64,000 bases of DNA from Promethearchaeota archaeon. Lineage in GTDB: Archaea > Asgardarchaeota > Lokiarchaeia > Sigyniarchaeales > SOKP01. The stretch is taken from NCBI GenBank assembly GCA_048941265.1, contig JBHLNT010000006.1:6987-70986 (forward strand). The letters are read 5' to 3'. The notes under the pieces were generated by a model, which saw only the letters and a program-made list of their open reading frames with translations, was not told the DNA's origin and ran no database searches. Positions within the stretch are counted from its first letter, which is position 1. The number at the start of each line of letters is the position of its first letter. A program made the translations under genes and the position numbers. Of the stretch, positions 19,184-58,151 are shown in pieces.

Positions 19184-19720
19184 ATGGGAGTGATATTATT
19201 TTCAATGGAGAATGAAATCAAAAAATTAAAGGAAATAGTCGAATCTAATCCAAATAATATTAATGCTTGGATTAATCTGGCTCAAGTCTATTATAATAAT
19301 GGTGATATAGATAAATCTATAGATTCTTTTAAAGTAGCTCTTGAAATTGAACCTAAAAATGCTCTTATAATGCAAAATCTTGGTTATCTATACAACGAAA
19401 AAGGTGAATATGTTGAAGCGATATTAATTTTGAAAAAAGCTTTGGAAATTGACCCAAATTTATCTATTGCATCAACAGAACTTAGTTTCTCTTATCTTGA
19501 AATAGGTGATTTTGAAAACACTATAAAAACTTGTAAAAATGCTTTGAAAATTAATCCTAAAGATGAAGTGGCATGGACAAATTTAGGATCTGCTTACTAT
19601 AATCAGAAAAATTATGATAAAGCAATCGAAGCATTGAAAAAAGCTTTAAATATTATTCCTAATTTAGAGTTTGCACAAAAGGTTTTAGACTTAGCAGAAA
19701 AAGCTAAAAAAGAAAATTAG
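19184..19720 (+). CDS. TPR-repeat protein
   Basis: Five consecutive 34-aa TPR-like units (AWINLAQVYYNNGDIDKSIDSFKVALEIEPKN and others). Confidence 0.85.
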   Translation: MGVILFSMENEIKKLKEIVESNPNNINAWINLAQVYYNNGDIDKSIDSFKVALEIEPKNALIMQNLGYLYNEKGEYVEAILILKKALEIDPNLSIASTELSFSYLEIGDFENTIKTCKNALKINPKDEVAWTNLGSAYYNQKNYDKAIEALKKALNIIPNLEFAQKVLDLAEKAKKEN

Positions 19721-26915: not shown

Positions 26916-27149
26916 AAACCACCTATTATAATACTTGAATAATTTATACTAGTGAAATTAATAGATAAATTTTTTCAAAAAGCTTTGGAATTCTCAATCT
27001 TTAAACATTAACTTCAAAAGCCAGAAGGATTTTTTTATGATCAATAATTACCAATACCATTAAGTAGAAATATCATTAGTTCTACATTTTTTTTAAAGAT
27101 TTAACAATAAACTGTTAAGTAAAAATTTAATTAAATTAGAGTGGAAATA

Positions 27150-30008
27150 ATGGATATAAACGCATATTCATTGGAAGTTCAAGATGTAGTTAACAAAATG
27201 GATACTTCATTGGAAACAGGATTATCGGAAAAAGAAGTAAATAGAAGAATTGAAGAATATGGTTTTAATGAGTTAAGAGAAACTAAAAAAATTTCAGCAT
27301 GGGAAATCTTTTTGAGTCAGTTTAAAGATTTTCTGGTTTACTTATTATTGTTTGCAATTGCTATATCCCTTATTGTTGGATTTTATGCACTCTCTGTTGG
27401 GGACGAACCTACTGAGTTCTTAGATGCTTTAGTAATTTTCATAATATTAATTGTCAATGCGGTTTTAGGATTTTATCAAGAGTATAAAGCTGAAAAAGCA
27501 TTAGAAAGCTTAAAAAGGATGGCCCCCCATAATGCTAAAGTTAAAAGAAATGGGATCATAAAAGAAATCGAGGTAAAAAATGTAGTGCCCGGAGATATCT
27601 TGCAATTGGATGAGGGCGATAAATTACCTGCTGATGCAAGGTTGACAAAAGCATATTCGTTATATATTGACGAAGCGATTCTTACTGGTGAATCTCAACC
27701 TGTTGGAAAAAATCTTAAATTAATTGAAGAAAAAACAATTCTCGCAGAACGTAAGAATATGGTATATAGTAATACAATAATTACTCGAGGTAACGGAGAA
27801 GCAATTGCTGTAGCAACCGGAATGCAGACAGAGATTGGAAAAATTGCTGAAAAAATTCAAGCAGAAGAACCTCAACCAAGCCCATTTCAAATTGAAGTTG
27901 ACCGTTTTGGAAAAACATTAGGAAAATTTATAATGATCATATGTTTTTTGGTTTTTTTAATAGAATTCTTTATAATCATATTAACTGAGGGTTTAGAATT
28001 TGGAAGGGAAGAAATTGATCATATAGTTGCCGCTTTAACGATAGCAATAAGTCTTGCAGTTTCTGCTGTACCAGAAGGATTAGTAGTTGTAATAACAGTA
28101 GTTATGAGTATTGGAATGAGAAAGATGGCAGATAGAAATGCATTGGTGAAGACTCTTACTGCTGTTGAAACTTTAGGACGGGTAAATATAATATGCTCAG
28201 ATAAAACAGGTACACTCACTAAAAATGAGATGACTATCGTAAAACTATTTCTCGGAGGAAATGAATATAATGTAGAGGGCGTGGGTTATAATATTGAGGG
28301 AAAAATTTTAAATGAATCTGGAAATACTGTGTCATTGGACTTACCCTATTTAAAGAGATTTTTAGAAGTAGGGAATTTTTGTAATAATTCAAATGTAATT
28401 GTTAATGAGGATGGAGTAAATACAGATGTTGTGGGAGACCCGACTGAGATCTGCTTTAAAATTTTAGCATTGAAAATGGGTCTTGATACAAAAGCTGAGA
28501 AGCTTAATGAAATCCCCTTTAGCTCTGATAGAAAAATGATGTCTGTTGCAATAAAAATCGATAATAAAATATATTCTTTTCTTAAAGGAGCACCCGATGT
28601 TTTATTAAAAAATGCAACAAAAGGACTTTATAATGGTGAAGAAAAACCAATTAAAGAGCTTATTGACACATTTCTTAAAAAAAATGAAGAGTATGGTAAG
28701 AATGCTTTAAGAGTATTAGGATTGGCATATAAACCGCTTAATGAAGTTTTTAATGAAGAAGATATGGAAAAAGATTATATATATCTCGGACTTGTAGGCA
28801 TTATTGATCCCGCTCGAGATGAGGTTAAAAAATCAATAGTTCAAGCAAGAATGGCAGGAATTCGAACTATTATGATCACAGGAGATCATAAAATTACCGC
28901 AATTGCGATTGCTAAAGAGATTGGTTTAACTGATTCCGATGATGCTATAACAGGTGCGGAGTTAGAGGAGATGTCGGATGAAAATTTAGCAAATCAGCTT
29001 CAAAATGTTGATGTATTTGCAAGAGTAACATCGGAGCATAAATTACGTATCCTTAAAGTCTTAAAGACTCAAGAAAATGTAGTTTCGATGACAGGTGATG
29101 GAGTTAACGATGCCCCCGCGGTAAAAGGAGCAAACGTTGGAGTTGCAATGGGCTTAAAGGGAACCGAAGTCACCCAAGAAGCGTCGGATATGATCCTTAT
29201 TGATGATAATTATGCTACCATTGTAAATGCGATCGAAGAAGGAAGGGGTATTTTTGAAACTACTAAAAGTTTCTTTAGATATATGTTAAGCGCGAATTTT
29301 GATGAAATAATCCTAATCTTAACAGCATGGATTCTTATGAAGCTTTTTGTTAATATTTATCTCGCGATACCCCTTGAACCTATACAAATATTATGGTTAA
29401 ATATTGCCACTGATGGTATTCCCGCGATGGTCTTGGGTTTAACTCCTACTGATCCTGATGTAATGAATTTTAAACCACGTAAAGGTTTTAATATGATTGC
29501 TGATATCAAGAAAGCTATTATATTTGTGGCTGTTTTTGCAGCTATTACTGATGTGGTATTATATGTTGTTTGTTGGTCAATTTTAATTCCTGCTTGGAGT
29601 GATCCAAATTCACCGTGGTATGATCCTCGTTTAGTCAATGGAACTACGATTTGGGGCGTGAAATATACAGCAGAGGAGTATCAAATTGGTGTAGTACAAA
29701 CGATTGTTTTTACTAATGTAGTCTTTTTCGAATTATTTTTTGTATTTTCATGTACTTCTGAATATAAACCAATGTGGGATTTCCCAAACAAACATTTATT
29801 CTGGGCCACAGCAATATCATTTGGATTACAAATTGCAATTTTATTTACACCACTTTGCATCGCATTCCACGCAGTACCGATGGATCGATGGTTTCACTGG
29901 TTAGCAATTTTTTTAGGTTCAATTTTTATTCTACCTGCGGAAGAAACAAGAAAATACTTTAAGAGAAGAAATCTTCAGAAAAGTCCACAAAATTTTGAGA
30001 TCTCATAA
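27150..30008 (+). CDS. P2-type (SERCA-like) cation-transporting P-type ATPase, copy 1
   Basis: TGES, PEGL, DKTGTLT, MITGDHKITA and GDGVNDAPA motifs plus 10 predicted TM segments. ATG at 27150 (the track uses GTG at 27141). Confidence 0.9.
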   Translation: MDINAYSLEVQDVVNKMDTSLETGLSEKEVNRRIEEYGFNELRETKKISAWEIFLSQFKDFLVYLLLFAIAISLIVGFYALSVGDEPTEFLDALVIFIILIVNAVLGFYQEYKAEKALESLKRMAPHNAKVKRNGIIKEIEVKNVVPGDILQLDEGDKLPADARLTKAYSLYIDEAILTGESQPVGKNLKLIEEKTILAERKNMVYSNTIITRGNGEAIAVATGMQTEIGKIAEKIQAEEPQPSPFQIEVDRFGKTLGKFIMIICFLVFLIEFFIIILTEGLEFGREEIDHIVAALTIAISLAVSAVPEGLVVVITVVMSIGMRKMADRNALVKTLTAVETLGRVNIICSDKTGTLTKNEMTIVKLFLGGNEYNVEGVGYNIEGKILNESGNTVSLDLPYLKRFLEVGNFCNNSNVIVNEDGVNTDVVGDPTEICFKILALKMGLDTKAEKLNEIPFSSDRKMMSVAIKIDNKIYSFLKGAPDVLLKNATKGLYNGEEKPIKELIDTFLKKNEEYGKNALRVLGLAYKPLNEVFNEEDMEKDYIYLGLVGIIDPARDEVKKSIVQARMAGIRTIMITGDHKITAIAIAKEIGLTDSDDAITGAELEEMSDENLANQLQNVDVFARVTSEHKLRILKVLKTQENVVSMTGDGVNDAPAVKGANVGVAMGLKGTEVTQEASDMILIDDNYATIVNAIEEGRGIFETTKSFFRYMLSANFDEIILILTAWILMKLFVNIYLAIPLEPIQILWLNIATDGIPAMVLGLTPTDPDVMNFKPRKGFNMIADIKKAIIFVAVFAAITDVVLYVVCWSILIPAWSDPNSPWYDPRLVNGTTIWGVKYTAEEYQIGVVQTIVFTNVVFFELFFVFSCTSEYKPMWDFPNKHLFWATAISFGLQIAILFTPLCIAFHAVPMDRWFHWLAIFLGSIFILPAEETRKYFKRRNLQKSPQNFEIS

Positions 30009-30223: not shown

Positions 30224-33082
30224 ATGACGATTAAAGAAGTATATCCTCATGCGATGGATATTAATGAAGTCGCAAAATCATTGGACACATTATTAAGCAC
30301 GGGAATATCAGACCAAGAAGCTGAGAAACGATTAGATGAATATGGTTTAAATGAATTAATCCAAAGAAAAAAAATCTCTCCGCTTGCTATTTTTATTGAG
30401 CAGTTTAAAGATTTTCTCGTTTATTTGCTATTTTTTGCAATCGGCATTTCGATAATTGTGGGCTTTTATGAACTTTCCAAGGGTGGATTTCCCTCAGAAT
30501 TCTTAGATGCCTTAGTTATTTTCATTATTTTAATTTTAAATGCAATTTTGGGATTTTATCAGGAATTTAAGGCGGAAAAATCCTTAGAAAGCTTGAAAAA
30601 ATTAGCCCCTCATTACGCTAAGGTCAAGAGAGGGGGAAAAATTAAACAAATCAGTGTTAAAGAAGTGGTGCCCGGAGATGTCATTCAACTAGACGAGGGT
30701 GAAAAAATACCTGCCGACGCTCGATTAACAAAGGCTTTCTCGTTATATGTAGATGAAGCTATTCTTACTGGAGAGTCAAAACCAGTTCATAAAAATTTAG
30801 ATTTAGTGGACAAAAAAACGATATTGGCAGATAGAAAGAATAGTATCTACAGCAACACTATAATAACAAGGGGAAACGGAGAGGCAATTGTTATCGCTAC
30901 AGGGATGCAAACTGAAGTTGGAAAAATTGCCGAAAAAATTCAAGAAGAAGAGCCAGAACCAAGTCCTTTTCAGCAAGAAGTTGATCGATTCGGAAGATTT
31001 CTTGGAAAAATGATTATGCTTGTATGTTTTCTCGTATTTGCTATAGAATTAGTAATTATTATAACCTTTGAGGGACTTAGATTTCAGGCAGAAGAAATAG
31101 AAGAGATTATAAATGCGTTAACAGTTGCGATAAGCCTTGCAGTTTCTGCCGTACCAGAAGGGTTGGTAGTAGTTATTACGGTTGTAATGAGTTTAGGAAT
31201 GAGACGAATGGCCGATAAAAATGCATTAGTAAAAACTCTTACTGCTGTTGAGACGTTAGGACGTGTAAACGTCATATGCTCAGATAAAACAGGAACATTG
31301 ACTAAAAACGAAATGACGGTCGTACGGATTTTTATCAATGATGAGGTCTATAAAGTTGATGGAGTAGGATATAATATAATTGGGAAAATCCTTGATGAAA
31401 ATAATAATGTAATACAAATGAATCTTAATCTGATGCGTTTTTTAGAAGTTAGTATGTTTTGCAATAATTCTAGTGTAAATATCATGAATGATGATGGTGA
31501 TACGGAAGTTGTGGGCGATCCTACAGAAATTTCGTTAAAAGTTTTGGCAATGAAAATGAATATAGCAACGAAAATAGAAAAAATCGATGAGATACCTTTT
31601 AACTCAGATAGAAAAATGATGACTGTTATCGCAAGAATTAATGGGGAATTATTTGCACTAATTAAAGGAGCACCAGATGTCTTATTGAAAAAAGCAAGTA
31701 AAATTTTATACCAGGATCAGGATGTACCAATAGAGAAAGCTGAAAAAATGATTTTGGAGCAAAATGAATATTTTGCAAAAGAAGCTTTACGAGTATTAGG
31801 AATAGCTTATAAACCTCTAATTGAAGGATATAATGAAGAAGAGGTTGAAAAAGATTTTATTTTCTTAGGTTTAGTTGGGATCATCGATCCTGCTAGAGAT
31901 GAAGTAAAAGGGTCTATAGAAGAAGCAAGAAATGCGGGCATCAGAACTATAATGATTACAGGAGATCATAAAATTACTGCAATTGCGATAGCTAGACAAA
32001 TTGGATTAACAGATAATGATGAGGCGATTACTGGGGCTGAATTGGAAGAAATGTCCGATGCTGAATTAGCGCATAGAGTTAAAAATACCGATGTTTTTGC
32101 AAGAGTAACTTCCGAACATAAACTTCGCATTTTAAACGCACTAAAAGCTGAACAAGATATTGTTTCCATGACAGGAGATGGAGTAAATGATGCCCCCGCC
32201 GTAAAAGGTGCAAATGTTGGAGTCGCGATGGGGCTTAAAGGAACAGAAGTTACCCAAGAAGCGGCAGATATGATCCTAATTGATGATAATTACACTACGA
32301 TCGTTAATGCTATTGAGGAAGGGAGAGGAATATTCGAAACTACTAAGAGTTTTTTTAGATACATGCTAAGTTGTAATTTTGACGAAATCATAATGATTTT
32401 AGTAGCATGGATTTTGATGAAAATTTATGTTAATGTTTATCTAGCTCAACCACTAGAAGCTATACAAATTTTATGGTTAAATGTTGCAACAGATGGAATT
32501 CCAGCAATGGTATTAGGATTAACTCCAACAGAACCTAATGTTATGGAACATAAGCCACGTAAAGGCTTTAATATGATTTCAGATATAAAAAAGGCAATCA
32601 TCTTTGCTGCAGTCTTTGCTGCAATAACAGATGTAGGATTATATGTAATAGTATGGTGGTTAATTAGAGGTCCTACAGGAGATGGGGGGATTTGGATGAA
32701 TATGGACCCCCGGCTAGTAAATGGAGCGACTTTCTGGGGAATTAAATATTCTGCAGAAGAATATCAAATAGCAGTGGCACAATCTATTGTTTTTACAAAT
32801 GTCGTATTTTTTGAATTATTTTTTGTATTTTCATGCACCTCTGAAAGTAGACCTGTATGGGAATTTCGAAATAAGCACTTATTTTGGGCCACTGGAATTT
32901 CATTCGCCTTACACTTATGTATTCTATTTACACCATTAGCTATTGCTTTCCATACAGTCCCAATGGATAGATGGTATCACTGGGCAGCTATCTTTTTAGG
33001 CTCAGTCTTTATAATTCCAGCTGAAGAAATGAGAAAATACTTAGTTAGACGAAAAAAAAAAGCAATGGAAATAATTTATTGA
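30224..33082 (+). CDS. P2-type (SERCA-like) cation-transporting P-type ATPase, copy 2
   Basis: Same motif set as copy 1 and colinear with it over the full length. Confidence 0.9.
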   Translation: MTIKEVYPHAMDINEVAKSLDTLLSTGISDQEAEKRLDEYGLNELIQRKKISPLAIFIEQFKDFLVYLLFFAIGISIIVGFYELSKGGFPSEFLDALVIFIILILNAILGFYQEFKAEKSLESLKKLAPHYAKVKRGGKIKQISVKEVVPGDVIQLDEGEKIPADARLTKAFSLYVDEAILTGESKPVHKNLDLVDKKTILADRKNSIYSNTIITRGNGEAIVIATGMQTEVGKIAEKIQEEEPEPSPFQQEVDRFGRFLGKMIMLVCFLVFAIELVIIITFEGLRFQAEEIEEIINALTVAISLAVSAVPEGLVVVITVVMSLGMRRMADKNALVKTLTAVETLGRVNVICSDKTGTLTKNEMTVVRIFINDEVYKVDGVGYNIIGKILDENNNVIQMNLNLMRFLEVSMFCNNSSVNIMNDDGDTEVVGDPTEISLKVLAMKMNIATKIEKIDEIPFNSDRKMMTVIARINGELFALIKGAPDVLLKKASKILYQDQDVPIEKAEKMILEQNEYFAKEALRVLGIAYKPLIEGYNEEEVEKDFIFLGLVGIIDPARDEVKGSIEEARNAGIRTIMITGDHKITAIAIARQIGLTDNDEAITGAELEEMSDAELAHRVKNTDVFARVTSEHKLRILNALKAEQDIVSMTGDGVNDAPAVKGANVGVAMGLKGTEVTQEAADMILIDDNYTTIVNAIEEGRGIFETTKSFFRYMLSCNFDEIIMILVAWILMKIYVNVYLAQPLEAIQILWLNVATDGIPAMVLGLTPTEPNVMEHKPRKGFNMISDIKKAIIFAAVFAAITDVGLYVIVWWLIRGPTGDGGIWMNMDPRLVNGATFWGIKYSAEEYQIAVAQSIVFTNVVFFELFFVFSCTSESRPVWEFRNKHLFWATGISFALHLCILFTPLAIAFHTVPMDRWYHWAAIFLGSVFIIPAEEMRKYLVRRKKKAMEIIY

Positions 33083-34454: not shown

Positions 34455-35534
34455 TTAAATCTCTTCAAATGTTTTAAAAAATAAGCCAATTCCTATAATT
34501 TTAAAAGTATCTTGTATATTTATATTATTTAAGGCAGAGGTTTCTATGAAAAAACAGCCTAATTCTTCGGATTTTTTCAGACCCTCTTCTTTAGAAACTT
34601 GTCTTTGGTCTTCTAAATCTATTTTATTTCCTATAAGAACAAAAGGTACGTTTCCTAATTCTTTACGAGCATCTTTATACCAGATATCTATAGCCTCCTC
34701 AAATGTCTTTCTTCGAGTGATATCATAAACCAAAAAAACACATTTCGCTCCAATATAATATTTATGCCTAATTAACTTAAAATATTCTTGACCTGCAATA
34801 TCATATATCAAGAATTTAATAAGTTCATTCTCAAAACCTTGAATATAATATTGTTGACTGGAAATTGAGATTCCTAAAGTGGGTCTATAATCTGAACTTT
34901 GCTTTTTCTGAAGAAAATTATTAACTAAGGTTGTTTTTCCAACCGCAGCAGAACCTAATACGATTAGTTTAAAAGCATGCCTTCTTGGTTTTTCGCTACT
35001 TATGCGATGTGTTAATTTAGCACTCATATTTAATGATTTTGACGGATCGACAGCATGACGATTCAATTCTAGGGAAAATTCACCGCTAATGTTTAAATCT
35101 GGAATTTTTAAACTATTATATTTAGGATCAAAACTATTTTCTAAAATTTGAGCAATTTTCTCCACGACTAGATATGCAATTGGAAAAAATTTATTTAAAT
35201 CTATATCAAGATTACAAACACATAATAAAATAGCTTCAGGACCAGACTCAAGATAAACAATTCGATTATTAGGAGTTTCAAATGAACCTGTGCCAAATTG
35301 ACCAATTTGATATTCTAATGATATCTTATTTAATAATTCTTCAATGGTTGCTGAAATTGGAGAATGAATCTCTTTTGATTTGATATCATTAATTTTATTA
35401 TTTAGTTTCAATTCGCCATATTTTGCGATTAATAGCCCTTGTCGTGAATAGAGAAAGACAATCTCGATATCGTTTCGTGCATCAATAAAATTCTTTAATA
35501 ATTGAGAAATTCTTTCTTGCTTTATAATTACCAT
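34455..35534 (-). CDS. Roadblock/longin-like domain fused to a Ras/Rab-like small GTPase
   Basis: The C-terminal G domain has GSAAVGKTT (G1), DIAGQE (G3), GNKIDL (G4) and ETSAL (G5). The N-terminal approx 140 aa show a Roadblock-like pattern (IEIVFLYSRQGLLIAKYG ... NRIVYLESGPEAILLCVCNLDIDLNK). Confidence 0.8.
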   Translation of the reverse strand: MVIIKQERISQLLKNFIDARNDIEIVFLYSRQGLLIAKYGELKLNNKINDIKSKEIHSPISATIEELLNKISLEYQIGQFGTGSFETPNNRIVYLESGPEAILLCVCNLDIDLNKFFPIAYLVVEKIAQILENSFDPKYNSLKIPDLNISGEFSLELNRHAVDPSKSLNMSAKLTHRISSEKPRRHAFKLIVLGSAAVGKTTLVNNFLQKKQSSDYRPTLGISISSQQYYIQGFENELIKFLIYDIAGQEYFKLIRHKYYIGAKCVFLVYDITRRKTFEEAIDIWYKDARKELGNVPFVLIGNKIDLEDQRQVSKEEGLKKSEELGCFFIETSALNNINIQDTFKIIGIGLFFKTFEEI

Positions 35535-37299: not shown

Positions 37300-37625
37300 A
37301 CAAAATGCCTTTTTTTATGATTTTATAAAAAGAATTGCAGTAAATTAATAAGATATGTCTATAATGTATATGAAAAATGTTATATTTAAACTCACTTTAG
37401 TAATTAATAAAAAATATTTCTGTTAAATCCATAATACAAAATATTTTATTATTATCACAAATAATTATTGATAATTTTATTTAGGGGAATTAAACATTTA
37501 AATAGACAAATTTTAAAATAATATTTATACCTATAGTTTGTAATAAACATTTAATCTTTAAAAAAAGATAAAAACAAATAGGTAATCTTAATAAAAAATA
37601 AATTTAAAATTAGAAACCTTCGGGG

Positions 37626-40600
37626 ATTAAAATTTATATATACAATACAAAAAAAAATAAAAGAAGACTGATAATCTTATTTTTACTCCTCGGATTAGCT
37701 AATGCAAACTTTTCTGCGATTAATTTTATTTCTTTCACAGGTGTACCAACAACTAAAAACGGTTCAAATGAGAATAATCCTCCATTAAATGATAACACTC
37801 TCGAACTTGCAGCATATTCAGACACAACCGAACAAACTGGAAACAATATTGCGATTACTCAGCATCAATCAATTAATAATACAGGTAATCCTTTATATGA
37901 AATTACCGATTTTAACAGCCTTGAGAACCGTACATTTGAAATTGATTGCCCTACTGATACTGATTTTAAATCTTCATACACCGAAATAAAAGTCAATGAT
38001 ATTTATGCTCCAAATATAACACTCGTAGTTGATAATGATATTTCAAATACAGCACCAATTGGTTACAATTATACTGTATCGGGCAGCGTTTATGCATCAT
38101 TTCGAACTAACGGAGGTGTGGGTTATTTAGATAATTTTACTTTTTATGCTGCAAAAGGAGGAGCTACTGGTTGTACGTTCAATATTTATCTATACACTGC
38201 AAAATTGCTATCAGGATTTCCTGCTCCTGACACTATGATAACTGGTAGTAGTATAGGTTCAGGTTCTCTTACATCAGAAATACAAAATTGGGTCACAATC
38301 ACAGGTTTACATACTTTATTTAATTCTTCCTCCTTAGAAACTTATGACAATACATTCTTTATAAGAATACAGATTACTGGTGCAGAGAATATAATTTGGA
38401 ATGGTAATTATGATCGATCTGCTCTTTTTGATGGAAAAGACGAAACACAAGTATATGATAATCCTACAACAAGAACTTATATCCCACCATTTATTGATAG
38501 TTATGTAGATCTAAACTTTAAAGTCGGCCTAGGTTTCCCTGATAATACACCTGCACCAAAAGATTTAGCGATGACAATAAATAATACGGAAGTGAGCAAT
38601 GGAGTTGACAATTCTGGAACATGGACAAATAATACTGTCTTACCCAGATCAAATAATCAATTAAATTTTACTATTGATTCTGATTGGTGGAACGTGACCT
38701 GCACCATAACCAAAATACAGGTCAACTATACCAAGACCAGTGTATACGGAATTGCTAACTTTACAGCATCGACAATTGATGATACAATATATTGGAATGT
38801 TACAATGAGTGATTTAATCAATGACTTTGAAGGAAAATTCGAAAATCCCTATATAAATTTCACAGTACCGTCTCACTGGCAAAATGTTAAAGTTTGGAAT
38901 GGAGGTACGCAAATGGCGATAAGTACAACAAGGCTGTTGGGGACTGGATATAACGAATTACAAATCCTTAATGCTAATAATGGAAACTTCTGGTTCTTGA
39001 ACGCTACGACTACAAATATGATAGAAGGAACAGATGGTATAAAGACTTATGATGATTTGGGTGTCAATGTGAATCAGATTAATTATACAAATACGATGGA
39101 AATTAATGCAACTTTAATACAAGACATAGCTTCGAATAATGGATATCTGAATTTAACGATATATAATGGGATTCCGCCATATTATGTGAATTATTCAAGC
39201 AATCCGACGACATTTGAGGGAATTCGAGAAATTACCGTCGATGACTGGGATATGACTACTGTAGATGAGTATGGAAACTATAGAATACAAGTATTGTGGC
39301 AAAATGGTACTGATGTTGGATTTCGAGAAAAGATGATTAGAGTAGTAGGTGAAACAGATATGATTCTGACTACTCCCGCAGTGAACACGTTCAATGCTGA
39401 TCAGGTCTTTAACATTACTGTGTTTAATAATGATACGGGAAAAGATAAAGGATATATACCAACATTATTTACATATACGCTTGATAATGGTGCACATTGG
39501 AGGTCTGGAACTGATAATATCACTGCAACCTCAACTCCAGGTGAATATAACATCACTATTCATTGTAATGACACTCAATTTAACGGATACGGCCCGAAAA
39601 CTATACGAATCAATGCTAATAGGGAATCCTACTATAATCAATCCAAAACATTCGATATAAATATTTTAGCAGTGACATCTTACTCATTAATAGGAAGTGG
39701 TGGAAAATCTGATTTTAATTCAAATGAAGTTTTTAATATTACAATTGAATATTGGGATGATGAATTAGATGAGGGAATTGATACCAATGAGATAGAGTAT
39801 AGACTAAATAATACAGCAGATTTTCAATCAAGTAATATTCAAAACATAGGGAATGGTCAATATAATATTACAGTTTATTGTAATGATATTTCTTTTGGGG
39901 CATATGGTCCACAGTCCATCCTAATTAATATTAATAAGACATACTATCATAACCATACTCGAACTGTTGGTTTTAATATTACAGGAGTAACTAATATAAA
40001 TATCGATTATCCTAATCCAAATACTCAATTCCTAACATCAAAGATATTTAATATTACAGTAAATTTCCAAGATACTTCAAGAACTCAAGGGGATATAGCA
40101 GATGCATACATTTATTATAAGCTTAATGATACTGAAAATTATAGAGATATTCCAAGTGATTGGAAATATATTGGCAATGGACAATATAATATAACCATTG
40201 ACGGGAGTGATATAGCATTTAATGGAAATCCATATGGTTTATACACAATAACAGTAAATGCGAGTAAACAATATTATGAAAACAAAAGTAGATCAATTAA
40301 TATAATAATCATAGGAGATACTTCATTAGCAGCAATAAGTCCGTCTCAAGGGGGATATTATAGTCCAGGCGGGGATCCTTTCAATATCACAGTAGAATAT
40401 AAAGATGCCATAAGATCCCAGGACATAATTGGCGCAAATATCGTATGTAGGCTTAATGATACTGGTGCTCTCTTCCGTTCGGATATTGTCAAGTATATCG
40501 GCAATGATCAATATAATATTACAATAAATCCAGACGATGTAGATATAAGAAATATATATGGACCTATTAATGTTGTGATAAACGCCTCTAATACATTCTA

Positions 40601-42794
40601 TAGAAATAGATCAATCACTTTTAATTTCAATAGAGTGATTACTACGCAGATTACATCTCCTGATAATCCTCCAAATCCTAACAATGTTAATCTCGGTTGG
40701 ATTTTCAGAGAACAAAATGTTTCATATGTGTTTTATTATAATACTACACTTGGAGATCCAATAAATAGTGCTGATAGGGAAGTTTTAGAAAATGATGGAG
40801 GCTTTATTTATTCTATTCTTGATTTAGGAAATGGTAAATACAACGTCAGTTTGGATTCGACTGGTATGAAAGCCCAAGTAATTCCGTATACATTTAAGTT
40901 TAGAATTTCAGCAACAGGAAATCAATCTCAGGAAATTACCTTGACAATACAAGTCTTACTACCAAATACAAAGATTGATATGAAAACTGATATTTCCGAT
41001 TTTCAAGTTCCAGTTGGATTCAATATAACTTTGGAATTTAACTTTACAGACGACTATCATGGGGGAAGAATAGAGTCCATTACATCTGAGAATGTGACTG
41101 TTGAATATTATGATGGTATTGGTTGGGTTGATTACAATATTACTTATGGAGGTAATCCTAATTTTCCTAATGGAGCATGGGAATTATACAATCTCACTAA
41201 AGGACAATATCGCTTAAATATTACAACGTGGAAATTAGGTAATGGTAATAGATATACCATACGGATAAAAATTTCGTATATTTCTTCGAATCCTGGACGA
41301 TATAATGATAGTATAATCGAAATTAACAACTTTTTATATGGTACCTCTTCAATTATTCCACCTGATGGTGGAGGTGGTGGAGGTGGCGGTGGAGGTGGGG
41401 GCACAACTGTAACAGGAATTGCTCCTGAAACACTTATGCTCTACATTATAATCATAGCTGCCGTAGTTGGGCTTGTAGCTGCTATTGTAGGTGTACAAAA
41501 AGGTGTAATAGCGCCTAAAAAGCGAGAAAAAGAGAGAGTACTAAGAGAAGTAACAACGGTCTTTGATGATGCCATAAATTTAGAGCATTTACTCGTCATT
41601 TTTAAGGGTACTGGAACGTGTATATTCTTTAAATCGTATGGAATGGAGGAAATTGACCCTGAATTAATTAGTGGATTTTTAACTGCTGTATCTTCTTTCG
41701 GAAGAGAAATGGATTCCCAAGAAGCACTAAATGAAATCAAATACGGTGATAAAATGCTTTTGTTAGCCGATGGGGAATATATTAGAGTTGCTTTAGTCTT
41801 AGAAAAAAGTGCTTCAATCATATTACGTCAACACTTAAAAGATTTCATTGATGCTTTTGAAGTAGCATATGCTAATGCCTTACCAAAGTGGAGGGGACAA
41901 ATAAATGTCTTCAAAGATGCGGGAGATTTAGTTGATGAGAAGTTACATACGTCGATTATTTTGCCTCATGAAATTAAATATGATTTAGGAAAAGTTAAAG
42001 CTCTGAAAAATCCTCACTCTAAGGATGTTTTGAAAATCGCAAACGGTTTAGTGGCAGAATCAGATCGTAAATTCTTCTTTATAGCAACTCTATTAATTGA
42101 AGCTGTCGATAAAACAGGAAAAGATAAGGCAGAGATCTTTATGGGTATTAAGGAACTAAGAGATTCCGGTTTATTATCACCAATTCAAATAACAACCATT
42201 GAAGAGCAACCAATTTCTCAACAAGAAATGAATCTTATAAGACAAAAACTTCAATCAATACCAGGACTAACAGATCAAGAACGCCAAAAGTTGGTAACCG
42301 ATGTTGCAAAAATGAGCCCTGCAGAGAGAGAAGCTTATATTACAAGTTTGGCTGAGAAAAAGGAAATCGTATCTGCTCCTATTATATCGAAAGCTGGAGC
42401 TGTAGTAATAGATAATATCAAATCTGCAAAGAGGGAAGTTTCAAATCTCAGAAAGAAAGCCAAATCAGAAGTTAAAAGGAAAAATATTGAAAAAGGCATT
42501 GGAATTTATCGAGAAGCCGCGGTTATCGCAACGAATTGGGATTTAACAAAAGAATTTGAAGTTATTGAAGATGAAATTAGAATAATCACAATCAGCGATT
42601 TAAAATCAAAAATGAAAGTCTTAGAAGCGGAAGCTAAATTAGCAGCCAAAGCAGGTGATTATGCCGAAGCTGCTGAAAAATATAGTATTGCATCGGAGGC
42701 TGCATCAGAGATTTTCAAGCTAGGAATTACAGAAATGACTAAAGAAGTAAAACGACTAACAAATAAATCTAAAGAATTTGAAAGACTAAGTTAA
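37626..42794 (+). CDS. Giant type-I surface protein: signal peptide, Ig-like repeat ectodomain rich in N-x-S/T, poly-Gly stalk, single TM, approx 430-aa cytoplasmic tail; start codon non-canonical or uncertain
   Basis: The frame is open from 37614 (after TAG at 37611-37613) to 42794. Upstream of the track's GTG at 38118 it encodes ...IKIYIYNTKKNKRRLIILFLLLGLANANFSA..., a classic signal peptide, but there is no ATG/GTG/TTG in this stretch (only ATT, ATA and CTG). TM helix is LMLYIIIIAAVVGLVAAIVGV. Confidence 0.75.
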   Translation: MKIYIYNTKKNKRRLIILFLLLGLANANFSAINFISFTGVPTTKNGSNENNPPLNDNTLELAAYSDTTEQTGNNIAITQHQSINNTGNPLYEITDFNSLENRTFEIDCPTDTDFKSSYTEIKVNDIYAPNITLVVDNDISNTAPIGYNYTVSGSVYASFRTNGGVGYLDNFTFYAAKGGATGCTFNIYLYTAKLLSGFPAPDTMITGSSIGSGSLTSEIQNWVTITGLHTLFNSSSLETYDNTFFIRIQITGAENIIWNGNYDRSALFDGKDETQVYDNPTTRTYIPPFIDSYVDLNFKVGLGFPDNTPAPKDLAMTINNTEVSNGVDNSGTWTNNTVLPRSNNQLNFTIDSDWWNVTCTITKIQVNYTKTSVYGIANFTASTIDDTIYWNVTMSDLINDFEGKFENPYINFTVPSHWQNVKVWNGGTQMAISTTRLLGTGYNELQILNANNGNFWFLNATTTNMIEGTDGIKTYDDLGVNVNQINYTNTMEINATLIQDIASNNGYLNLTIYNGIPPYYVNYSSNPTTFEGIREITVDDWDMTTVDEYGNYRIQVLWQNGTDVGFREKMIRVVGETDMILTTPAVNTFNADQVFNITVFNNDTGKDKGYIPTLFTYTLDNGAHWRSGTDNITATSTPGEYNITIHCNDTQFNGYGPKTIRINANRESYYNQSKTFDINILAVTSYSLIGSGGKSDFNSNEVFNITIEYWDDELDEGIDTNEIEYRLNNTADFQSSNIQNIGNGQYNITVYCNDISFGAYGPQSILININKTYYHNHTRTVGFNITGVTNINIDYPNPNTQFLTSKIFNITVNFQDTSRTQGDIADAYIYYKLNDTENYRDIPSDWKYIGNGQYNITIDGSDIAFNGNPYGLYTITVNASKQYYENKSRSINIIIIGDTSLAAISPSQGGYYSPGGDPFNITVEYKDAIRSQDIIGANIVCRLNDTGALFRSDIVKYIGNDQYNITINPDDVDIRNIYGPINVVINASNTFYRNRSITFNFNRVITTQITSPDNPPNPNNVNLGWIFREQNVSYVFYYNTTLGDPINSADREVLENDGGFIYSILDLGNGKYNVSLDSTGMKAQVIPYTFKFRISATGNQSQEITLTIQVLLPNTKIDMKTDISDFQVPVGFNITLEFNFTDDYHGGRIESITSENVTVEYYDGIGWVDYNITYGGNPNFPNGAWELYNLTKGQYRLNITTWKLGNGNRYTIRIKISYISSNPGRYNDSIIEINNFLYGTSSIIPPDGGGGGGGGGGGGTTVTGIAPETLMLYIIIIAAVVGLVAAIVGVQKGVIAPKKREKERVLREVTTVFDDAINLEHLLVIFKGTGTCIFFKSYGMEEIDPELISGFLTAVSSFGREMDSQEALNEIKYGDKMLLLADGEYIRVALVLEKSASIILRQHLKDFIDAFEVAYANALPKWRGQINVFKDAGDLVDEKLHTSIILPHEIKYDLGKVKALKNPHSKDVLKIANGLVAESDRKFFFIATLLIEAVDKTGKDKAEIFMGIKELRDSGLLSPIQITTIEEQPISQQEMNLIRQKLQSIPGLTDQERQKLVTDVAKMSPAEREAYITSLAEKKEIVSAPIISKAGAVVIDNIKSAKREVSNLRKKAKSEVKRKNIEKGIGIYREAAVIATNWDLTKEFEVIEDEIRIITISDLKSKMKVLEAEAKLAAKAGDYAEAAEKYSIASEAASEIFKLGITEMTKEVKRLTNKSKEFERLS
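39372..40646 (+). repeat. Four tandem approx 105-aa Ig-like modules inside the giant surface protein gene
   Basis: Each unit contains (V/I/P)FNIT(V/I)..., ...GNGQYNIT(V/I)..., ...YGP..I.IN(A)(S/N)..YY.N.S. Two more diverged units follow, up to about 41340. Confidence 0.8.
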
Positions 42795-43242: not shown

Positions 43243-44544
43243 TTAAGGTTCCCCAATTCCCCCTTCAGTAATAGTAAACACTGCTTCACTTTCGGGTAAA
43301 TGTGGAGCATCAACAATTTTAGCTATTCTCTGTTCTCCTTTCCCTTTTCTCAAGTAAATCCTAATTGTAGTTCCATGAGCAACAACATGGCCTCCTGTAT
43401 GAGTAGTAGGATTTCCATAGAAAACATCTGGTTTAGAAGATACTTGATTTGAAACAACTACTGCAAGGTCATTATGAATATCACATAATCTGAGAAGATC
43501 ATGAATGTGCTGATTAATAAGTTGTTGTCGGTTGGCTAATGTGCCTCTTCCAACATATTCCGATCTAAAATGTCCGATGAGAGAATCAACAATAATTAAT
43601 TTAATATTCTTTTCTTTGATAAGATTAGCGCTATCCTTAACCAAGAGTATCTGATGATCACTATTATAAGCACGACCAAAGACAATATTTTTTAAAATTT
43701 TCTTATAATCTAAATCTAAAGTTTCTGCCATCTGAATTATTCTTTCGGGTCTAAATGTCCCTTCAGTATCAATATAAAGCGCGTTTCCTTCTAATCCTCC
43801 TTGGTCTTTTGGCAATTGTACATTAACACAAAGCTGATGCATAATCTGAGTCTTTCCTGTCCTAAATTCACCAAAAAATTCAGTAATACTGCCTGTTTCT
43901 ATACCACCACCTAATAGATCGTCAAATTCTTTATTATTTGTTGTGATTCGTGCTATGTTTTTCCTATGCTCCCAAATTTCTTCTCCTGATTTGAATCCAA
44001 TCCCTAACTTTTCCATGCTTGCTTTAATTAACTTAGCCGTAGACTTTTCACCAAGACCACTATCCTCTTGAATTATTCTTGGGGGTGTATATGCTATTGA
44101 TTCCAAGGAGTTGAAACCAGCTTTTATCAGTTTATTTAATGTGGCCTCCCCTACACCAGGTAAAGATTTCACAGCTTTTATGCAATCATCAAGACCATTT
44201 ACTGATGAATCTTCAATACTTTCATCTTCTAAATCTTCACTTTCGGAATCATCCTCATTATCCTCATCAACAAAAACATCCTCAAAATCAGAATCTTCAA
44301 TGTTATCTTCATATTCTAATTCATTAAATGCTTCAATTAATTCTTTTTCATCATCATAATCTTCAACTTCAGAATCTGAATTTGCTTTAGGGGCTTCAGT
44401 TTCGGAATTCCCATTCTCTTTTAGCAATTTTATGATATCTTTTTTGCGAGTCTTCGAAGGAACATCAATATCCCTCTCAACAGCATAATTTTTTAAATCT
44501 TTAATAGTCATAGAATCAAAATCTATAGTTTCTGCTTTAGCCAT
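43243..44544 (-). CDS. radA: RadA recombinase with N-terminal SAP-like motif and acidic extension
   Basis: HhH region LPGVGEATLNKLIKAGF, Walker A GEFRTGKTQ, Walker B IKLIIVDS. An N-terminal approx 125-aa extension precedes them (see findings). ATG at 44544 (the track uses GTG at 44553). Confidence 0.9.
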   Translation of the reverse strand: MAKAETIDFDSMTIKDLKNYAVERDIDVPSKTRKKDIIKLLKENGNSETEAPKANSDSEVEDYDDEKELIEAFNELEYEDNIEDSDFEDVFVDEDNEDDSESEDLEDESIEDSSVNGLDDCIKAVKSLPGVGEATLNKLIKAGFNSLESIAYTPPRIIQEDSGLGEKSTAKLIKASMEKLGIGFKSGEEIWEHRKNIARITTNNKEFDDLLGGGIETGSITEFFGEFRTGKTQIMHQLCVNVQLPKDQGGLEGNALYIDTEGTFRPERIIQMAETLDLDYKKILKNIVFGRAYNSDHQILLVKDSANLIKEKNIKLIIVDSLIGHFRSEYVGRGTLANRQQLINQHIHDLLRLCDIHNDLAVVVSNQVSSKPDVFYGNPTTHTGGHVVAHGTTIRIYLRKGKGEQRIAKIVDAPHLPESEAVFTITEGGIGEP

Positions 44545-44737
44545 AATTATCACATTTTAAAAATATTTTTAAGTAGTTTTTATACTTGTTCTTAATTATG
44601 ATATATCTATAAACATGGATATTTTAAAGAGAGAAGACCATTAATTTTCAAATTTTTATTGAAAATATATAATCTTAAAAAAGTCTTAAAAAATGATCTG
44701 ATAAATATTGCGTTTTTGTTAAGTGGAAAAAGAATTT

Positions 44738-45100
44738 CTATGTGATATTTTTAATAGCTTCTGCTGTTTTTCTAAGCTCTATAAATGCTGTATCCATGCG
44801 TGCATCGACATCTAAACAAACAGCAACTATTAGCTCTTCATTACAGGCCATAACAATGAAATTCCCCTGATTTCCTTGAAGTATACATAAATCCAGAACT
44901 CCAGATCTTAATTCAAGGAGAACCCGCTCTGCAACACTCAATATAGTAGCTGTCATTGCTGCTAATTTGATATCGGATATTCCCTCTTCTAAAATTGACT
45001 GAACGATGAGTCCTTCAGCAGAAACTACTGCAGAAGATTTAATACCATCGATATTTTCATGTAAGGTCTGAAGCAAGAAAAGGAGTTGTTCGTCACTCAT
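44738..45100 (-). CDS. Roadblock/LC7 (MglB-like) domain protein
   Basis: 120 aa. IDGIKSSAVVSAEGLIVQS...LAAMTATILSVAERV...GNFIVMACNEELIVAVCLDVDARMD is a typical Roadblock pattern. Confidence 0.8.
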   Translation of the reverse strand: MSDEQLLFLLQTLHENIDGIKSSAVVSAEGLIVQSILEEGISDIKLAAMTATILSVAERVLLELRSGVLDLCILQGNQGNFIVMACNEELIVAVCLDVDARMDTAFIELRKTAEAIKNIT

Positions 45101-56411: not shown

Positions 56412-58151
56412 TTATTTGTAGATCTTCACACCACGCTTTTCTAAATCTGTCAAAGAATCCGAAAATTCCTTGAATTTATTTTTTTCTAAATTCAAATATT
56501 TAAGTTTTTTAATTAACTTGAGTGTGTAAATTGGTTCTATGTTAGTCAATTGATTGCTTCTTAGAAATAAATATTTAAGTGATTTTAGCTTTCCAACGGA
56601 TTTAGGAATATTCTTTATTTTATTATTTCCTAAATATAAGTATTTTAAAGATGAAAGCTTACCAATAGATTCCGGAATATCTTTAAGTTCATTATAATAT
56701 AAATATAAGTATTTCAACGATTTTAAAGAACCTATTGAATCAGGAATCTCTATTAAAATATTTTTACCTAAATCTAGTACTTCTAATTTAGAAAGTAAAC
56801 CGATGGATTGAGGTATTGTTTTTAATCTATTAAATCCTAAAATCAAATTTTGTATCAATAATATATTTCCAATAGTTTCAGGCAGAGATGTTAATTTGTT
56901 ATTTGATAAATCCAATTCTTTAAGTGAAGACAATTTACCCAATGACTTTGGTAAAATTTTAATATTGTTTTTACTCAAGTCTAATATTTCAAGTGAAGTC
57001 AGAAAACCTATTGAATCAGGTAAATTCTCTAACATATTATCATACAAATCTAATTCTTTTAATGATGTTAAAGACCTAATTGTCTCTGGTAAAGATTGCA
57101 ATTTATTGCGAGAAATTTTTAAACTTTCCAGTTTTTTTAATTTTCCAATTGATTCAGGAAGATCAGTCAAAAAATTTCGGTCTAGACGTAAAATCCTTAG
57201 ATTTGAGAGCTCACCAAATGATTCTGGAAGATTTTTTAATTTATTATCACGAATAGTAAGTCTCATGAGTGATTTTAAAGAACTTAATGAAATAGGGAGT
57301 TTTTTTAAATTATTAGAGGATATACTTAGATTTTCTAAGGATAAAAGTGAACCTATATTCTCGGGCAGAGAATTTAAATTGTTTTCTTTTAATCCTAAAT
57401 ATCTAAGATTTTTGAGATTTTCAATAGAATCAGGCAAAAACTCTAACGTATTTCCTTTTAAAAATAGGGAATTTAAGGCTCTTAATTCTCCTATTGAATC
57501 TGCTAATGATAATAATTTGTTATTTCTCAAATTTAATCTTTTAAGAGATGAAAATGAACCAATCGATTCGGGCAAAGTTGTTAGATTATTATTTCCTAAA
57601 TATAAGATTTCTAAAGATGAGAGTGAATTTAATTTCTCATTGAAAGAACTCAGTTGATTTCCACTTAAATCAAGGGTTTTTAAGTTTTTCAAATTATTTA
57701 AGGAATCAGGTAATTCTTTTAAATTATTTTCACTTAAGTCGAGGAATTCTAAATTTTTAAAAGAGCCGATTGATTCTGGTAAAATTTCTAAATTATTTGA
57801 TTCTAAATACAATTCTTTGAGTGAATTGAGACGATTAATTGAATCAGGCAGGTTTTTTAATTTATTTTCACTTAGATCTAATATTTCAATATTGGAAAGG
57901 GTGCAAAACTGATCTGAAATTTTATTTAAACGATTACCTCTTAAATAGATTCTTTTAAGATTTTTTAATGATGTTATAAAATCTGGAATAGAGGTTAAAC
58001 CACATGAAAATAGACCTAATCCAGTTATATGTTCGTTTTTCACCATATAACCGAACACATAATATTCAAGTTCTTTAACTTCTGGTATTGGACCACCAAT
58101 TTCTCTTTCAAGGTTTTCTAAAACCCTCAGTTCTTCTTTTAGAATTCCCAT
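56412..58151 (-). CDS. Leucine-rich repeat protein (about 22 x 23-aa LRRs, LxxLxxLxLxxNxLxxLPxSIGx)
   Basis: The repeats are directly readable in the translation. There is a short approx 60-aa N-terminal cap and no other domain. Confidence 0.95.
   Translation of the reverse strand: MGILKEELRVLENLEREIGGPIPEVKELEYYVFGYMVKNEHITGLGLFSCGLTSIPDFITSLKNLKRIYLRGNRLNKISDQFCTLSNIEILDLSENKLKNLPDSINRLNSLKELYLESNNLEILPESIGSFKNLEFLDLSENNLKELPDSLNNLKNLKTLDLSGNQLSSFNEKLNSLSSLEILYLGNNNLTTLPESIGSFSSLKRLNLRNNKLLSLADSIGELRALNSLFLKGNTLEFLPDSIENLKNLRYLGLKENNLNSLPENIGSLLSLENLSISSNNLKKLPISLSSLKSLMRLTIRDNKLKNLPESFGELSNLRILRLDRNFLTDLPESIGKLKKLESLKISRNKLQSLPETIRSLTSLKELDLYDNMLENLPDSIGFLTSLEILDLSKNNIKILPKSLGKLSSLKELDLSNNKLTSLPETIGNILLIQNLILGFNRLKTIPQSIGLLSKLEVLDLGKNILIEIPDSIGSLKSLKYLYLYYNELKDIPESIGKLSSLKYLYLGNNKIKNIPKSVGKLKSLKYLFLRSNQLTNIEPIYTLKLIKKLKYLNLEKNKFKEFSDSLTDLEKRGVKIYK
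56471..57968 (-). repeat. 69-bp-period coding repeat array (LRR units)
   Basis: The 23-codon periodicity of the LRR gene also produces the antisense shadow ORF 56896-57657. Confidence 0.85.

Follow-up and report, generated by a model that had tools for sequence, protein, structure and literature searches.

A predicted longin-fold cassette in the cytoplasmic tail of a large Lokiarchaeial surface glycoprotein

The gene and its start region

We analyzed a 64,000-nucleotide stretch of contig JBHLNT010000006.1 (assembly GCA_048941265.1) from a Promethearchaeota archaeon of the Lokiarchaeia, hereafter called the window, to which all coordinates refer. Its forward strand carries a gene for a large surface glycoprotein whose conserved cytoplasmic tail opens with a predicted longin-fold domain followed by a winged-helix-like domain, and this gene and the cassette at the start of its tail are the subject of the present work. 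A previous reading made from the letters alone (the sequence-only reading) had placed the gene at 38118–42794, and the corresponding open reading frame (ORF) of 1,558 amino acids from a GTG codon does exist on the forward strand. However, the frame is already open from 37614, runs uninterrupted for 1,726 codons, and encodes a signal peptide upstream of 38118, so that the start assigned in that reading is off by ca. 480 nucleotides. This signal peptide, recognized by hydropathy and by homology to ortholog N-termini, spans 37650–37718 (forward strand) and comprises an n-region (KKNKRR), an h-region with an 11-residue hydrophobic core (LIILFLLLGLA; 11-mer hydropathy of 3.27), and a c-region (NANFSA). 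The basic stretch and hydrophobic core of an N-terminal signal peptide are thus both present, though no canonical start codon precedes them: the 168 codons from the upstream stop to GTG 38118 hold no ATG, GTG, or TTG.

Nearly all of the 46 orthologs with complete upstream sequence start with an ATG that is followed by a basic stretch and a similar hydrophobic core, and this ATG sits 9 to 12 codons ahead of the core. Because the upstream peptide of the window gene matches these ATG-initiated N-termini, we regard GTG 38118 as a mechanical start and not the real one, so that the real product is predicted to comprise ca. 1,710 to 1,720 amino acids and to begin near 37632–37674. The start region without canonical start codon (37626–37674, forward strand) was delimited using the open frame, the ortholog N-termini, and the closest relative, L059, and shows GGGG at 37623–37625/6 and the AT-rich TTTATATATA at 37633–37642. 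L059, with a tail of 90% identity, likewise lacks a canonical start and is nearly identical in its upstream DNA, in which GGGG followed by ATT AAA ATT TAT ATA is conserved (37614–37740 of the window, 6269–6400 of L059), and we therefore interpret this region as a conserved non-canonical start and not as a sequencing error. The initiator is likely ATT 37632 or ATA 37638, with CTG 37668 and ATA 37671 as alternatives; the pattern suggests a conserved non-canonical codon, either ATT or ATA, or else initiation at CTG or ATA without a leader.

A sequon-dense ectodomain above a single transmembrane helix

The ectodomain of ca. 1,265 amino acids contains 55 N-x-S/T sequons (42 of them N-x-T), i.e., one per 23 residues. 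Shuffled ectodomain sequences are expected to hold 26.3±4.5 sequons and reach 55 in none of 5,000 shuffles, the reversed pattern occurs 23 times, and the cytoplasmic tail has a single sequon. The sequence-only reading had described the ectodomain as dense in glycan sequons, and these counts bear it out; glycosylation of the ectodomain is inferred from them. Its first part (37719–39365, forward strand), as seen from translation and sequon counts, is non-repetitive and sequon-rich and has no Pfam or NCBIfam match. It is followed by six tandem modules, R1 to R6, of ca. 108 amino acids each (105 to 115; 39366–41321, forward strand), which were located by motif positions and BLAST and share the motifs F-N-I-T-V and G-N-G-x-Y-N-I-T. 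Modules R1 to R4 are 30% to 40% identical to each other (BLAST E-values of 2e-9 to 5e-21), with R5 and R6 more divergent, as in the earlier description of at least four clear and two diverged modules with G-N-G-x-Y-N-I-T as their hallmark. These comparisons were made segment against segment, given that a BLAST self-comparison of the whole ectodomain culls enclosed high-scoring segment pairs and thereby hides the repeats. The modules presumably adopt a β-sandwich fold; relatives’ ectodomains give weak Pfam matches to MG4, Big_1, and Y_Y_Y, and the window protein has no Pfam match for an immunoglobulin (Ig)-like domain or any other family.

Between the modules and the membrane, translation shows a stalk of 12 glycines at 41367–41402 (forward strand), the very position where the sequence-only reading had seen a run of about a dozen. 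This stalk is a trait of the closest relatives only, being shared with L059 (11 glycines) and L002 (14 glycines), and the other 43 orthologs have glycine runs of three at most. Two antisense ORFs in this area, one at 41144–41404 that is the poly-proline mirror of the glycine run and another at 41441–41821, were discounted as mere by-products of the main frame.

The single transmembrane helix (LMLYIIIIAAVVGLVAAIVGV; hydropathy of 3.06) lies at 41433–41495 (forward strand), in agreement with an earlier placement at about 41430–41495, and a hydropathy scan of the window protein found no other hydrophobic segment besides the signal peptide. Seven lysines or arginines lie in the 20 residues after the helix and none in the 20 residues before it. 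Signal peptide, one internal transmembrane helix, positive-inside charge, and sequons on the outer side (55 vs. one in the tail) together reproduce the receptor-like layout that had been proposed, in a type I topology, and the sequon asymmetry holds across the 46 orthologs with 31 to 59 sequons per 1,000 amino acids outside and 0 to 4 in the tail. The protein is thus a type I surface glycoprotein of ca. 1,700 amino acids with one transmembrane helix and a cytoplasmic tail of 432 amino acids.

The cytoplasmic tail: a predicted longin-fold domain and a winged-helix-like domain

The tail was modeled with AlphaFold2 (AF2) from an alignment of 81 sequences (mean predicted local distance difference test [pLDDT] score of 79.6). 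It starts with a basic juxtamembrane segment and helix (PKKREK..R.L.EV.T.FDDAINLEH; 41496–41579, forward strand), recognized by its charge and in the AF2 model, of which the helix covers tail residues 6–28 and is conserved throughout the wider family described below. Secondary structure assignment by DSSP then gives strands at tail residues 29–36 and 42–47, a helix at 55–67, strands at 78–83, 86–92, and 96–102, and a helix at 108–124, followed by short helices up to residue 155 that include one at 136–155. The sequence-only reading had foreseen a tail of about 430 amino acids with a β-β-α-β-β-β-α pattern, and this pattern is reproduced by the model at tail residues 29–124 (41580–41867, forward strand) in the longin order β1-β2-α1-β3-β4-β5-α2(-α3). 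The helical linker that follows in the model (tail residues 125–156; 41868–41963, forward strand) probably belongs to the longin α3 region, and structural alignments of ca. 125 to 131 columns reach into it.

When the 432-residue multidomain model was searched against the PDB using Foldseek, the best 35 matches and nearly all of the 50 listed were longin or Roadblock domains, including the longin folds of ζ-COP, the σ subunits of AP-1 to AP-4, Sec22b, VAMP7, and sedlin. The best longin superpositions have TM-scores (by target) of 0.52 to 0.69 over ca. 125 columns at a root-mean-square deviation (rmsd) of ca. 3 Å. Scores above 0.5 were obtained for AP-1 σ3 (0.69), Sec22b (0.68 to 0.69), AP-2 σ (0.62), and VAMP7 (0.58 to 0.63), with an rmsd of 2.8 to 3.9 Å, a probability of 1.0, and E-values of 8e-3 to 6e-2. 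Roadblock-type matches (LAMTOR subunits, the Asgard Roadblock 9jq8, and MglB) are weaker, with TM-scores of 0.40 to 0.61, even if the helix at 6–28 precedes β1 in the model, as the Roadblock topology α-β-β-α-β-β-β would require. Predicted structure and fold search hence support a longin fold for this β/α domain, so that the longin/Roadblock-superfamily fold anticipated from the letters stands in the model and is closer to longin than to Roadblock.

Sequence comparisons do not see this likeness. Among the window protein and 81 relatives, neither the Pfam longin-type models (Longin, Clat_adaptor_s, Sybindin, Sedlin_N, and NPR2/3) match at E≤0.1 nor does Robl_LC7 (PF03259), and a PDB-sequence profile search with the cassette found nothing. 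An hhalign comparison of the cassette profile gave probabilities of ca. 0.1% against AP2S1 and Sec22b and ca. 0.1% to 0.2% against the window Roadblock protein and LAMTOR2, which is a weak test because all of these templates were single sequences. Pfam matches to GSH-S_ATP and Sec20 (E-value of 0.055) were rejected as noise.

The shared cassette ends with a domain at tail residues 157–235 (41964–42200, forward strand) that the AF2 model shows as winged-helix-like with the topology E-H-H-(E)-H-H-E, and in many members the match to the family profile stops around position 231. Beyond it, the model has a three-helix segment conserved in the orthogroup (tail residues 242–287; 42219–42356, forward strand) and, as seen in model and alignment, a low-confidence linker with a nearly invariant E-I-V-S-A-P-I (tail residues 288–307; 42357–42416, forward strand), in which pLDDT falls below 50 at residues 295–301 and conservation reaches at least 90% at S293, A294, P295, and I296. 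This E-I-V-S-A-P-I may act as a short linear motif and recalls P(S/T)AP.

The tail closes with an all-α domain of five helices in the AF2 model (tail residues 308–431) and the stop codon (42417–42794, forward strand), and two hairpins of this domain carry the motif K-x-x-[DN]-[YF]-x-x-A-[IA]-x-x-Y. A second AF2 model of tail residues 126–432 (pLDDT of 82, with 90 to 96 in the last domain) had no significant Foldseek match in the PDB; the calpain-7 tandem MIT domain bound to IST1 was the sole natural match with a probability of 1.0 (E-value of 0.055, TM-score of 0.36), and the rest were TPR proteins. At E<0.1, Pfam detects TPR_2 in 23 and MIT in 7 of 81 members, with a best E-value of 0.01 for MIT and of 1.3e-5 for TPR_1 in one member. 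PDB-sequence matches include designed CTPR proteins (E-value of 4e-8, summed over repeats) and the Vps4 MIT domain (0.4 to 1.1), and hhalign gives 71% over 19 columns for consensus TPR CTPR3 and 31% for the VPS4A MIT domain. We therefore call this end TPR/MIT-like without choosing between both; the C-terminus had been described as helical or coiled-coil, of which the helical part holds and the coiled coil gives way to a TPR/MIT-like domain.

Orthologs at a conserved locus

A word-indexed search with the tail retrieved 82 proteins with tails of 40% to 83% identity, most of them truncated where the contig stops within the repetitive ectodomain; the named ones all come from Asgard-labeled metagenome-assembled genomes (MAGs), mostly Lokiarchaeota or Promethearchaeota. 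When one genome per species was scanned, 91 loci were found and 80 kept, every one from a different genome, so that each of these 80 species-representative genomes holds the gene at a single locus. The usual order at these loci is P-type ATPase(s), a metallo-β-lactamase, a Rab-like GTPase on the opposite strand, ATP-grasp, TFB on the opposite strand, the surface-protein gene, RadA on the opposite strand, a Roadblock gene on the opposite strand, a PGI-like gene, and aspartokinase, with the metallo-β-lactamase, the Rab-like GTPase, TFB, and Roadblock found at some loci only. RadA lies downstream at 70 of the 80 loci, the PGI-like gene at 64, and Roadblock at ca. 17. The gene is thus syntenically conserved across Lokiarchaeia, and only orthologs, i.e., no paralogs, were found in the window and 1.2 Mb of related loci.

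Orthologs are 1,350 to 2,270 amino acids long, with up to 2,640 to 3,025 in P0118 and P0123. P0118 (2,640 amino acids; L084 8001–15923, CP163304.1) is the syntenic ortholog in the cultured Ca. Lokiarchaeum ossiferum B36, and we note that its tail extends for ca. 200 more helical residues past the C-terminus of the window protein. Compared to the closest relative, the tail is 90% and the ectodomain 50% identical, and for distant orthologs these values are 50% to 66% and 31% to 49%, respectively. The tail evolves ca. 5 times more slowly than the ectodomain, a difference that points to strong purifying selection on the tail relative to the ectodomain.

A wider family of transmembrane–longin–winged-helix cassettes

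An exhaustive profile search with tail residues 1–300 against 1.84 billion representatives detected 3,157 clusters at E≤1e-3, of which 872 reach ≤1e-10 and 162 reach ≤1e-30, while word-indexed searches (A4 and A6) were far less sensitive with 50 and 21 matches. In the 150 clusters listed of these 3,157, the conserved unit is a transmembrane helix plus profile positions ca. 4–231, i.e., the juxtamembrane helix, the longin domain, the linker, and the winged helix. The cassette forms the extreme C-terminus of many proteins of 900 to 1,700 amino acids, and nearly all of the listed members have a hydrophobic helix just upstream of it and 20 to 70 sequons per 1,000 amino acids N-terminally. The pattern of the longin domain is retained in this wider family at 28% to 36% identity, and no curated Pfam or NCBIfam model covers the cassette in the whole protein, the tail, the 81 relatives, or distant members. 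The transmembrane–longin–winged-helix cassette is thus a new domain family located beneath many surface proteins.

Taxonomy is known for a sample of the 3,157 clusters, and the named members come from Lokiarchaeia, Promethearchaeota, Helarchaeota, Hermodarchaeota, and Hodarchaeota, all but one from Asgard MAGs. The one other member, P0160 (HUY00210.1), is labeled as the bacterium “Candidatus Deferrimicrobium sp.” and probably sits on a misbinned Asgard contig, though it would matter if real. The ectodomains above the cassette are diverse, and in P0170 and P0185 (L081 511–3942) they consist of FG-GAP β-propeller repeats and Big_1 bacterial Ig-like domains. We note that the design of these two ectodomains is integrin-α-like.

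A few family members are soluble (P0220, P0238/239, and P0189). At locus L085 1–11528 (WJJF01000208.1), the end of a giant surface-protein gene overlaps the gene of soluble P0238 by 14 nucleotides. The giant protein (>2,279 amino acids) is sequon-rich and has a transmembrane helix and a tail of ca. 85 amino acids that resembles the N-terminus of P0238, P0238 itself comprises two winged-helix/PCI-like domains plus a longin domain of the cassette type, and the next gene encodes a Peptidase_C25-like surface protein of 1,332 amino acids. This single case resembles the fused architecture divided between two proteins, and the longin module is therefore tied to surface proteins independently of fusion.

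Neighboring genes and other features of the window

Besides the surface-protein gene, the window encodes a Ras-like GTPase (14151–14744), a Rab-like GTPase with an N-terminal extension of 185 amino acids (34455–35534, reverse strand) whose best PDB sequence matches are Rab2, Rab6, Rab14, and a Thorarchaeota Rab, and a Roadblock protein (44738–45100, reverse strand; Pfam Robl_LC7 at 1.6e-9). The sequence-only reading had listed a free Roadblock protein, a free small GTPase, and a Roadblock–GTPase fusion among the neighbors. The former two are there, and the fusion is a putative one, as the 185-amino acid extension has no Pfam match and no BLAST similarity to the window Roadblock protein.

We further note that RadA (43243–44553, reverse strand) has an N-terminal extension of ca. 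120 amino acids, in which a Rho_N/HeH/SAP-like motif and then a long acidic low-complexity stretch precede the usual HhH and Rad51 core. Two paralogous P-type cation ATPases of 955 and 952 amino acids lie in tandem at 27141–30008 and 30224–33082 (forward strand), where most related genomes have one match at this position. The window also holds a 906-amino acid ORF without a Pfam family at E≤1e-4 (3872–6592, forward strand), an LRR protein of 579 amino acids (56412–58151), a JAB/MPN protein of 517 amino acids (19818–21371), and a small TPR protein (19184–19720).

A proposed membrane-anchored adaptor platform and its alternatives

We propose a reading, to which we give an even chance of being right as a whole, in which the cassette is a membrane-anchored adaptor platform under variable adhesin or receptor ectodomains. 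The variable ectodomain would serve as adhesin or receptor surface, and the conserved cassette would form the platform at the membrane, where it would probably pair with another copy of itself or with a related domain, as other longin/Roadblock modules do, and dock a conserved protein from the cytosol. For this role we find one of the many Asgard small GTPases without own lipid anchor most plausible, because longin/Roadblock dimers are common small-GTPase platforms (PMC10933270) and because Lokiarchaeal GTPases lack a lipid anchor, with neither CAAX motifs nor prenyltransferases in Lokiarchaeum (PMC4917890, Table 1). This analogy makes a small GTPase a tentative and rather doubtful candidate. 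The TPR/MIT-like end would recruit further proteins, and the outcome might be to position, cluster, or sort surface proteins or to relay their engagement to intracellular machinery.

Several observations weigh against this proposal. The longin assignment is one of predicted structure without backing by sequence profiles, given that Pfam, NCBIfam, PDB-sequence profiles, and hhalign detect no longin or Roadblock family in the tail, and the Foldseek E-values are modest (4e-3 to 6e-2) at probabilities of ca. 1.0. Foldseek with tail residues 126–432 gave no PDB fold match for the winged helix, and the ectodomain is putatively Ig-like. Dimerization of the tail and its binding to a GTPase or another partner are likewise putative. 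Heavy glycosylation has been found for a single protein in P. syntrophicum (PMC11284389). The genomic association of the tail domain with GTPases that had been suggested earlier also failed to appear. The Rab-like GTPase and Roadblock genes are encoded on the opposite strand ca. 2 kb from the surface-protein gene, with the housekeeping genes ATP-grasp/TFB and RadA in between, and occur in part of the syntenic loci only; no GTPase or Roadblock gene is adjacent at seven other family members examined; and a Ras-like or Roadblock domain is present in 0 of 276 family proteins fetched. These loci and proteins thus show neither a gene fusion nor a conserved operon with a small GTPase. In such genomes, small GTPases number roughly a hundred and Roadblock genes run into the dozens (PMC4917890, PMC10933270), and the proximity seen in the window is therefore expected by chance. 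Conversely, Asgard GTPases are generally found outside operons of their presumed regulators (PMC10933270), so that the absent linkage weakens the idea of a GTPase partner without excluding it.

Among the alternatives, the one that fares best, though we consider it unlikely, is a purely structural coat protein that replaces an S-layer or glycocalyx and whose tail merely anchors and oligomerizes it beneath the membrane, e.g., in a sub-membrane lattice or on the cytoskeleton, with no GTPase and no signaling involved. The sequon density of one per 23 residues exceeds that of S-layer glycoproteins (one per 30 to 40 in Sulfolobales; PMC11284389), and Lokiarchaeia display many surface proteins without an ordered S-layer, as in Ca. 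L. ossiferum with its abundant complex surface proteins (PMC9834061). A single gene per species-representative genome in a housekeeping neighborhood and the failure to find a GTPase link would suit such a protein as well. Yet a multidomain tail of 432 amino acids with 50% to 90% conservation exceeds the needs of an anchor, the cassette is common to proteins with many unrelated ectodomains, and the tail ends in a TPR/MIT-like protein-interaction domain.

This same C-terminal domain could instead point to ESCRT- or vesicle-linked sorting, an improbable scenario in which a tandem MIT-like end binds ESCRT-III tails and E-I-V-S-A-P-I mimics a P(S/T)AP late domain, so that the protein would enter or nucleate membrane buds or protrusions that depend on ESCRT. 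It draws on the weak Pfam MIT matches in 7 of 81 members, the Vps4A/B MIT domains among the PDB sequence matches (E-values of 0.4 to 1.1), the complex of calpain-7 tandem MIT with IST1 as the only non-designed Foldseek match of probability 1.0, and the nearly invariant S-A-P-I in a disordered linker. However, none of the MIT matches is significant, TPR does equally well or better (CTPR at 4e-8; 71% vs. 31% in hhalign), the TM-score to calpain-7 MIT is just 0.36, the first proline of P(S/T)AP is missing from the motif, and most members of the wider family stop after the winged helix and have no such C-terminal domain at all.

It is more improbable still that the longin likeness is misleading and that the tail is a PAS-, GAF-, or profilin-like cytoplasmic sensor of small molecules or peptides or an actin-binding module, or that the fold is an artifact of a shallow alignment. 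The silence of the sequence profiles and the modest Foldseek E-values noted above would fit this, as would pLDDT values of 53 to 64 in the α1 region and the loop after it and the common core of longin, Roadblock, profilin, and GAF folds (PMC10933270, PMC4917890). But longin and Roadblock domains make up the best 35 Foldseek matches with PAS, GAF, and profilin absent among the 50 listed, the order of strands and helices is exactly that of longins, and the alignment holds 81 sequences, with the pattern retained in the wider family. Finally, a pseudogene or mis-assembly, as the 168 codons without ATG, GTG, or TTG ahead of GTG 38118 might suggest, has next to no probability in the face of a frame unbroken over 1,726 codons, a tail 90% identical to that of L059, which likewise has no canonical start codon and conserves the DNA upstream, and intact sequon asymmetry and repeats.

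In a broader reading, which appears quite unlikely to us, the cassette would be a general device joining the Asgard cell surface to eukaryote-like intracellular machinery. Each surface protein would then bring its own σ-adaptin-like or Ragulator-like platform, which would draw anchor-less small GTPases, or else parts of coats or of the ESCRT machinery, to particular sites on the membrane, and this would be a prokaryotic forerunner of the cargo-adaptor/GTPase-platform logic that predates endomembranes. Longin/Roadblock domains and small GTPases are among the best-known Asgard eukaryotic signature proteins, and the lack of prenylation machinery for these GTPases raises the question of how they contact membranes. 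With a longin domain held beneath the membrane under variable glycosylated ectodomains, the cassette family offers a concrete and testable candidate for this link, and it may also account for the “complex surface proteins” that cryo-tomography has revealed on Lokiarchaeum. The syntenic member in cultured B36 (P0118, CP163304) makes pull-downs, localization, and proteomics feasible. Even without a link to GTPases, the cassette could annotate thousands of hypothetical Asgard surface proteins.

Comparison with known systems

The best structural matches to tail residues ca. 29–155 are the σ/ζ subunits of vesicle coats (σ of AP-1 to AP-4 and ζ of COPI; TM-scores by target of 0.52 to 0.69 over ca. 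125 to 130 columns), which act at the cytosolic face of membranes beside the tails of transmembrane cargo. These subunits are soluble parts of heterotetramers without transmembrane helix or ectodomain, whereas the fold is found here within the membrane protein itself, and the two share 10% to 13% identity and no profile-level sequence similarity. Longin SNAREs such as Sec22b, VAMP7, and Ykt6 likewise have the longin fold (TM-scores of 0.50 to 0.69) and are anchored in the membrane, their longin domain facing the cytosol. Their order is an N-terminal longin domain, the SNARE motif, and a C-terminal transmembrane helix without ectodomain, while ectodomain, transmembrane helix, and longin domain follow each other here in the opposite topology; no SNARE motif was seen in the window protein, though no search was aimed at one.

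The Roadblock/LC7 platforms (MglB, LAMTOR2/3, and 9jq8) share the superfamily core predicted for the tail, and in the model a helix precedes β1 as it does in Roadblock domains. Ragulator, a membrane-anchored platform that recruits Rag GTPases, is our working model for the cassette. Structural matches to these platforms are weaker, however (TM-scores of 0.40 to 0.61, rmsd of 4 to 10 Å), the tail has no Pfam Robl_LC7 match, and Ragulator is anchored by the lipidated LAMTOR1 instead of a transmembrane glycoprotein. Longin-like domains are already known to be abundant in Asgard archaea. Lokiarchaeum alone has 41 of them, and the “NPRL2-like longin” proteins combine a longin with a small C-terminal domain, matching the tail in phylum, fold class, and the order of longin and small α/β domain (PMC4917890; bioRxiv 10.1101/2020.10.19.343400). 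In contrast, the Asgard longins described are soluble or fused to GTPases or two-component/signaling domains, and neither the Pfam NPR2/NPR3 nor the longin models match the tail.

Regarding the overall architecture, eukaryotic type I adhesion receptors like integrin α resemble the predicted plan of the window protein in having a signal peptide, a glycosylated β-rich ectodomain, one transmembrane helix, and an adaptor-recruiting tail, but the tails of integrins are short peptides with linear motifs, FG-GAP repeats are absent from the window protein, and we claim no homology. Archaeal S-layer glycoproteins share the dense N-x-S/T sequons, the large ectodomain, presumed to be β-rich in the window protein too, and the C-terminal transmembrane helix, yet have few cytoplasmic residues where the window protein has a conserved multidomain tail of 432 amino acids. 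The C-terminal 125 amino acids resemble the MIT domains of Vps4 and calpain-7 as well as TPR proteins in being helical with two K-x-x-D-Y-x-x-A-I-x-x-Y hairpins, with weak matches to both of which neither is significant enough to decide between them. A longin domain borne by a transmembrane-anchored surface glycoprotein was not described in the literature that we searched, which excludes Klinger et al. 2016. The architecture of a predicted longin domain right after the single transmembrane helix of a giant glycoprotein, followed by a winged-helix-like domain and recurring as a cassette, thus appears to be new.

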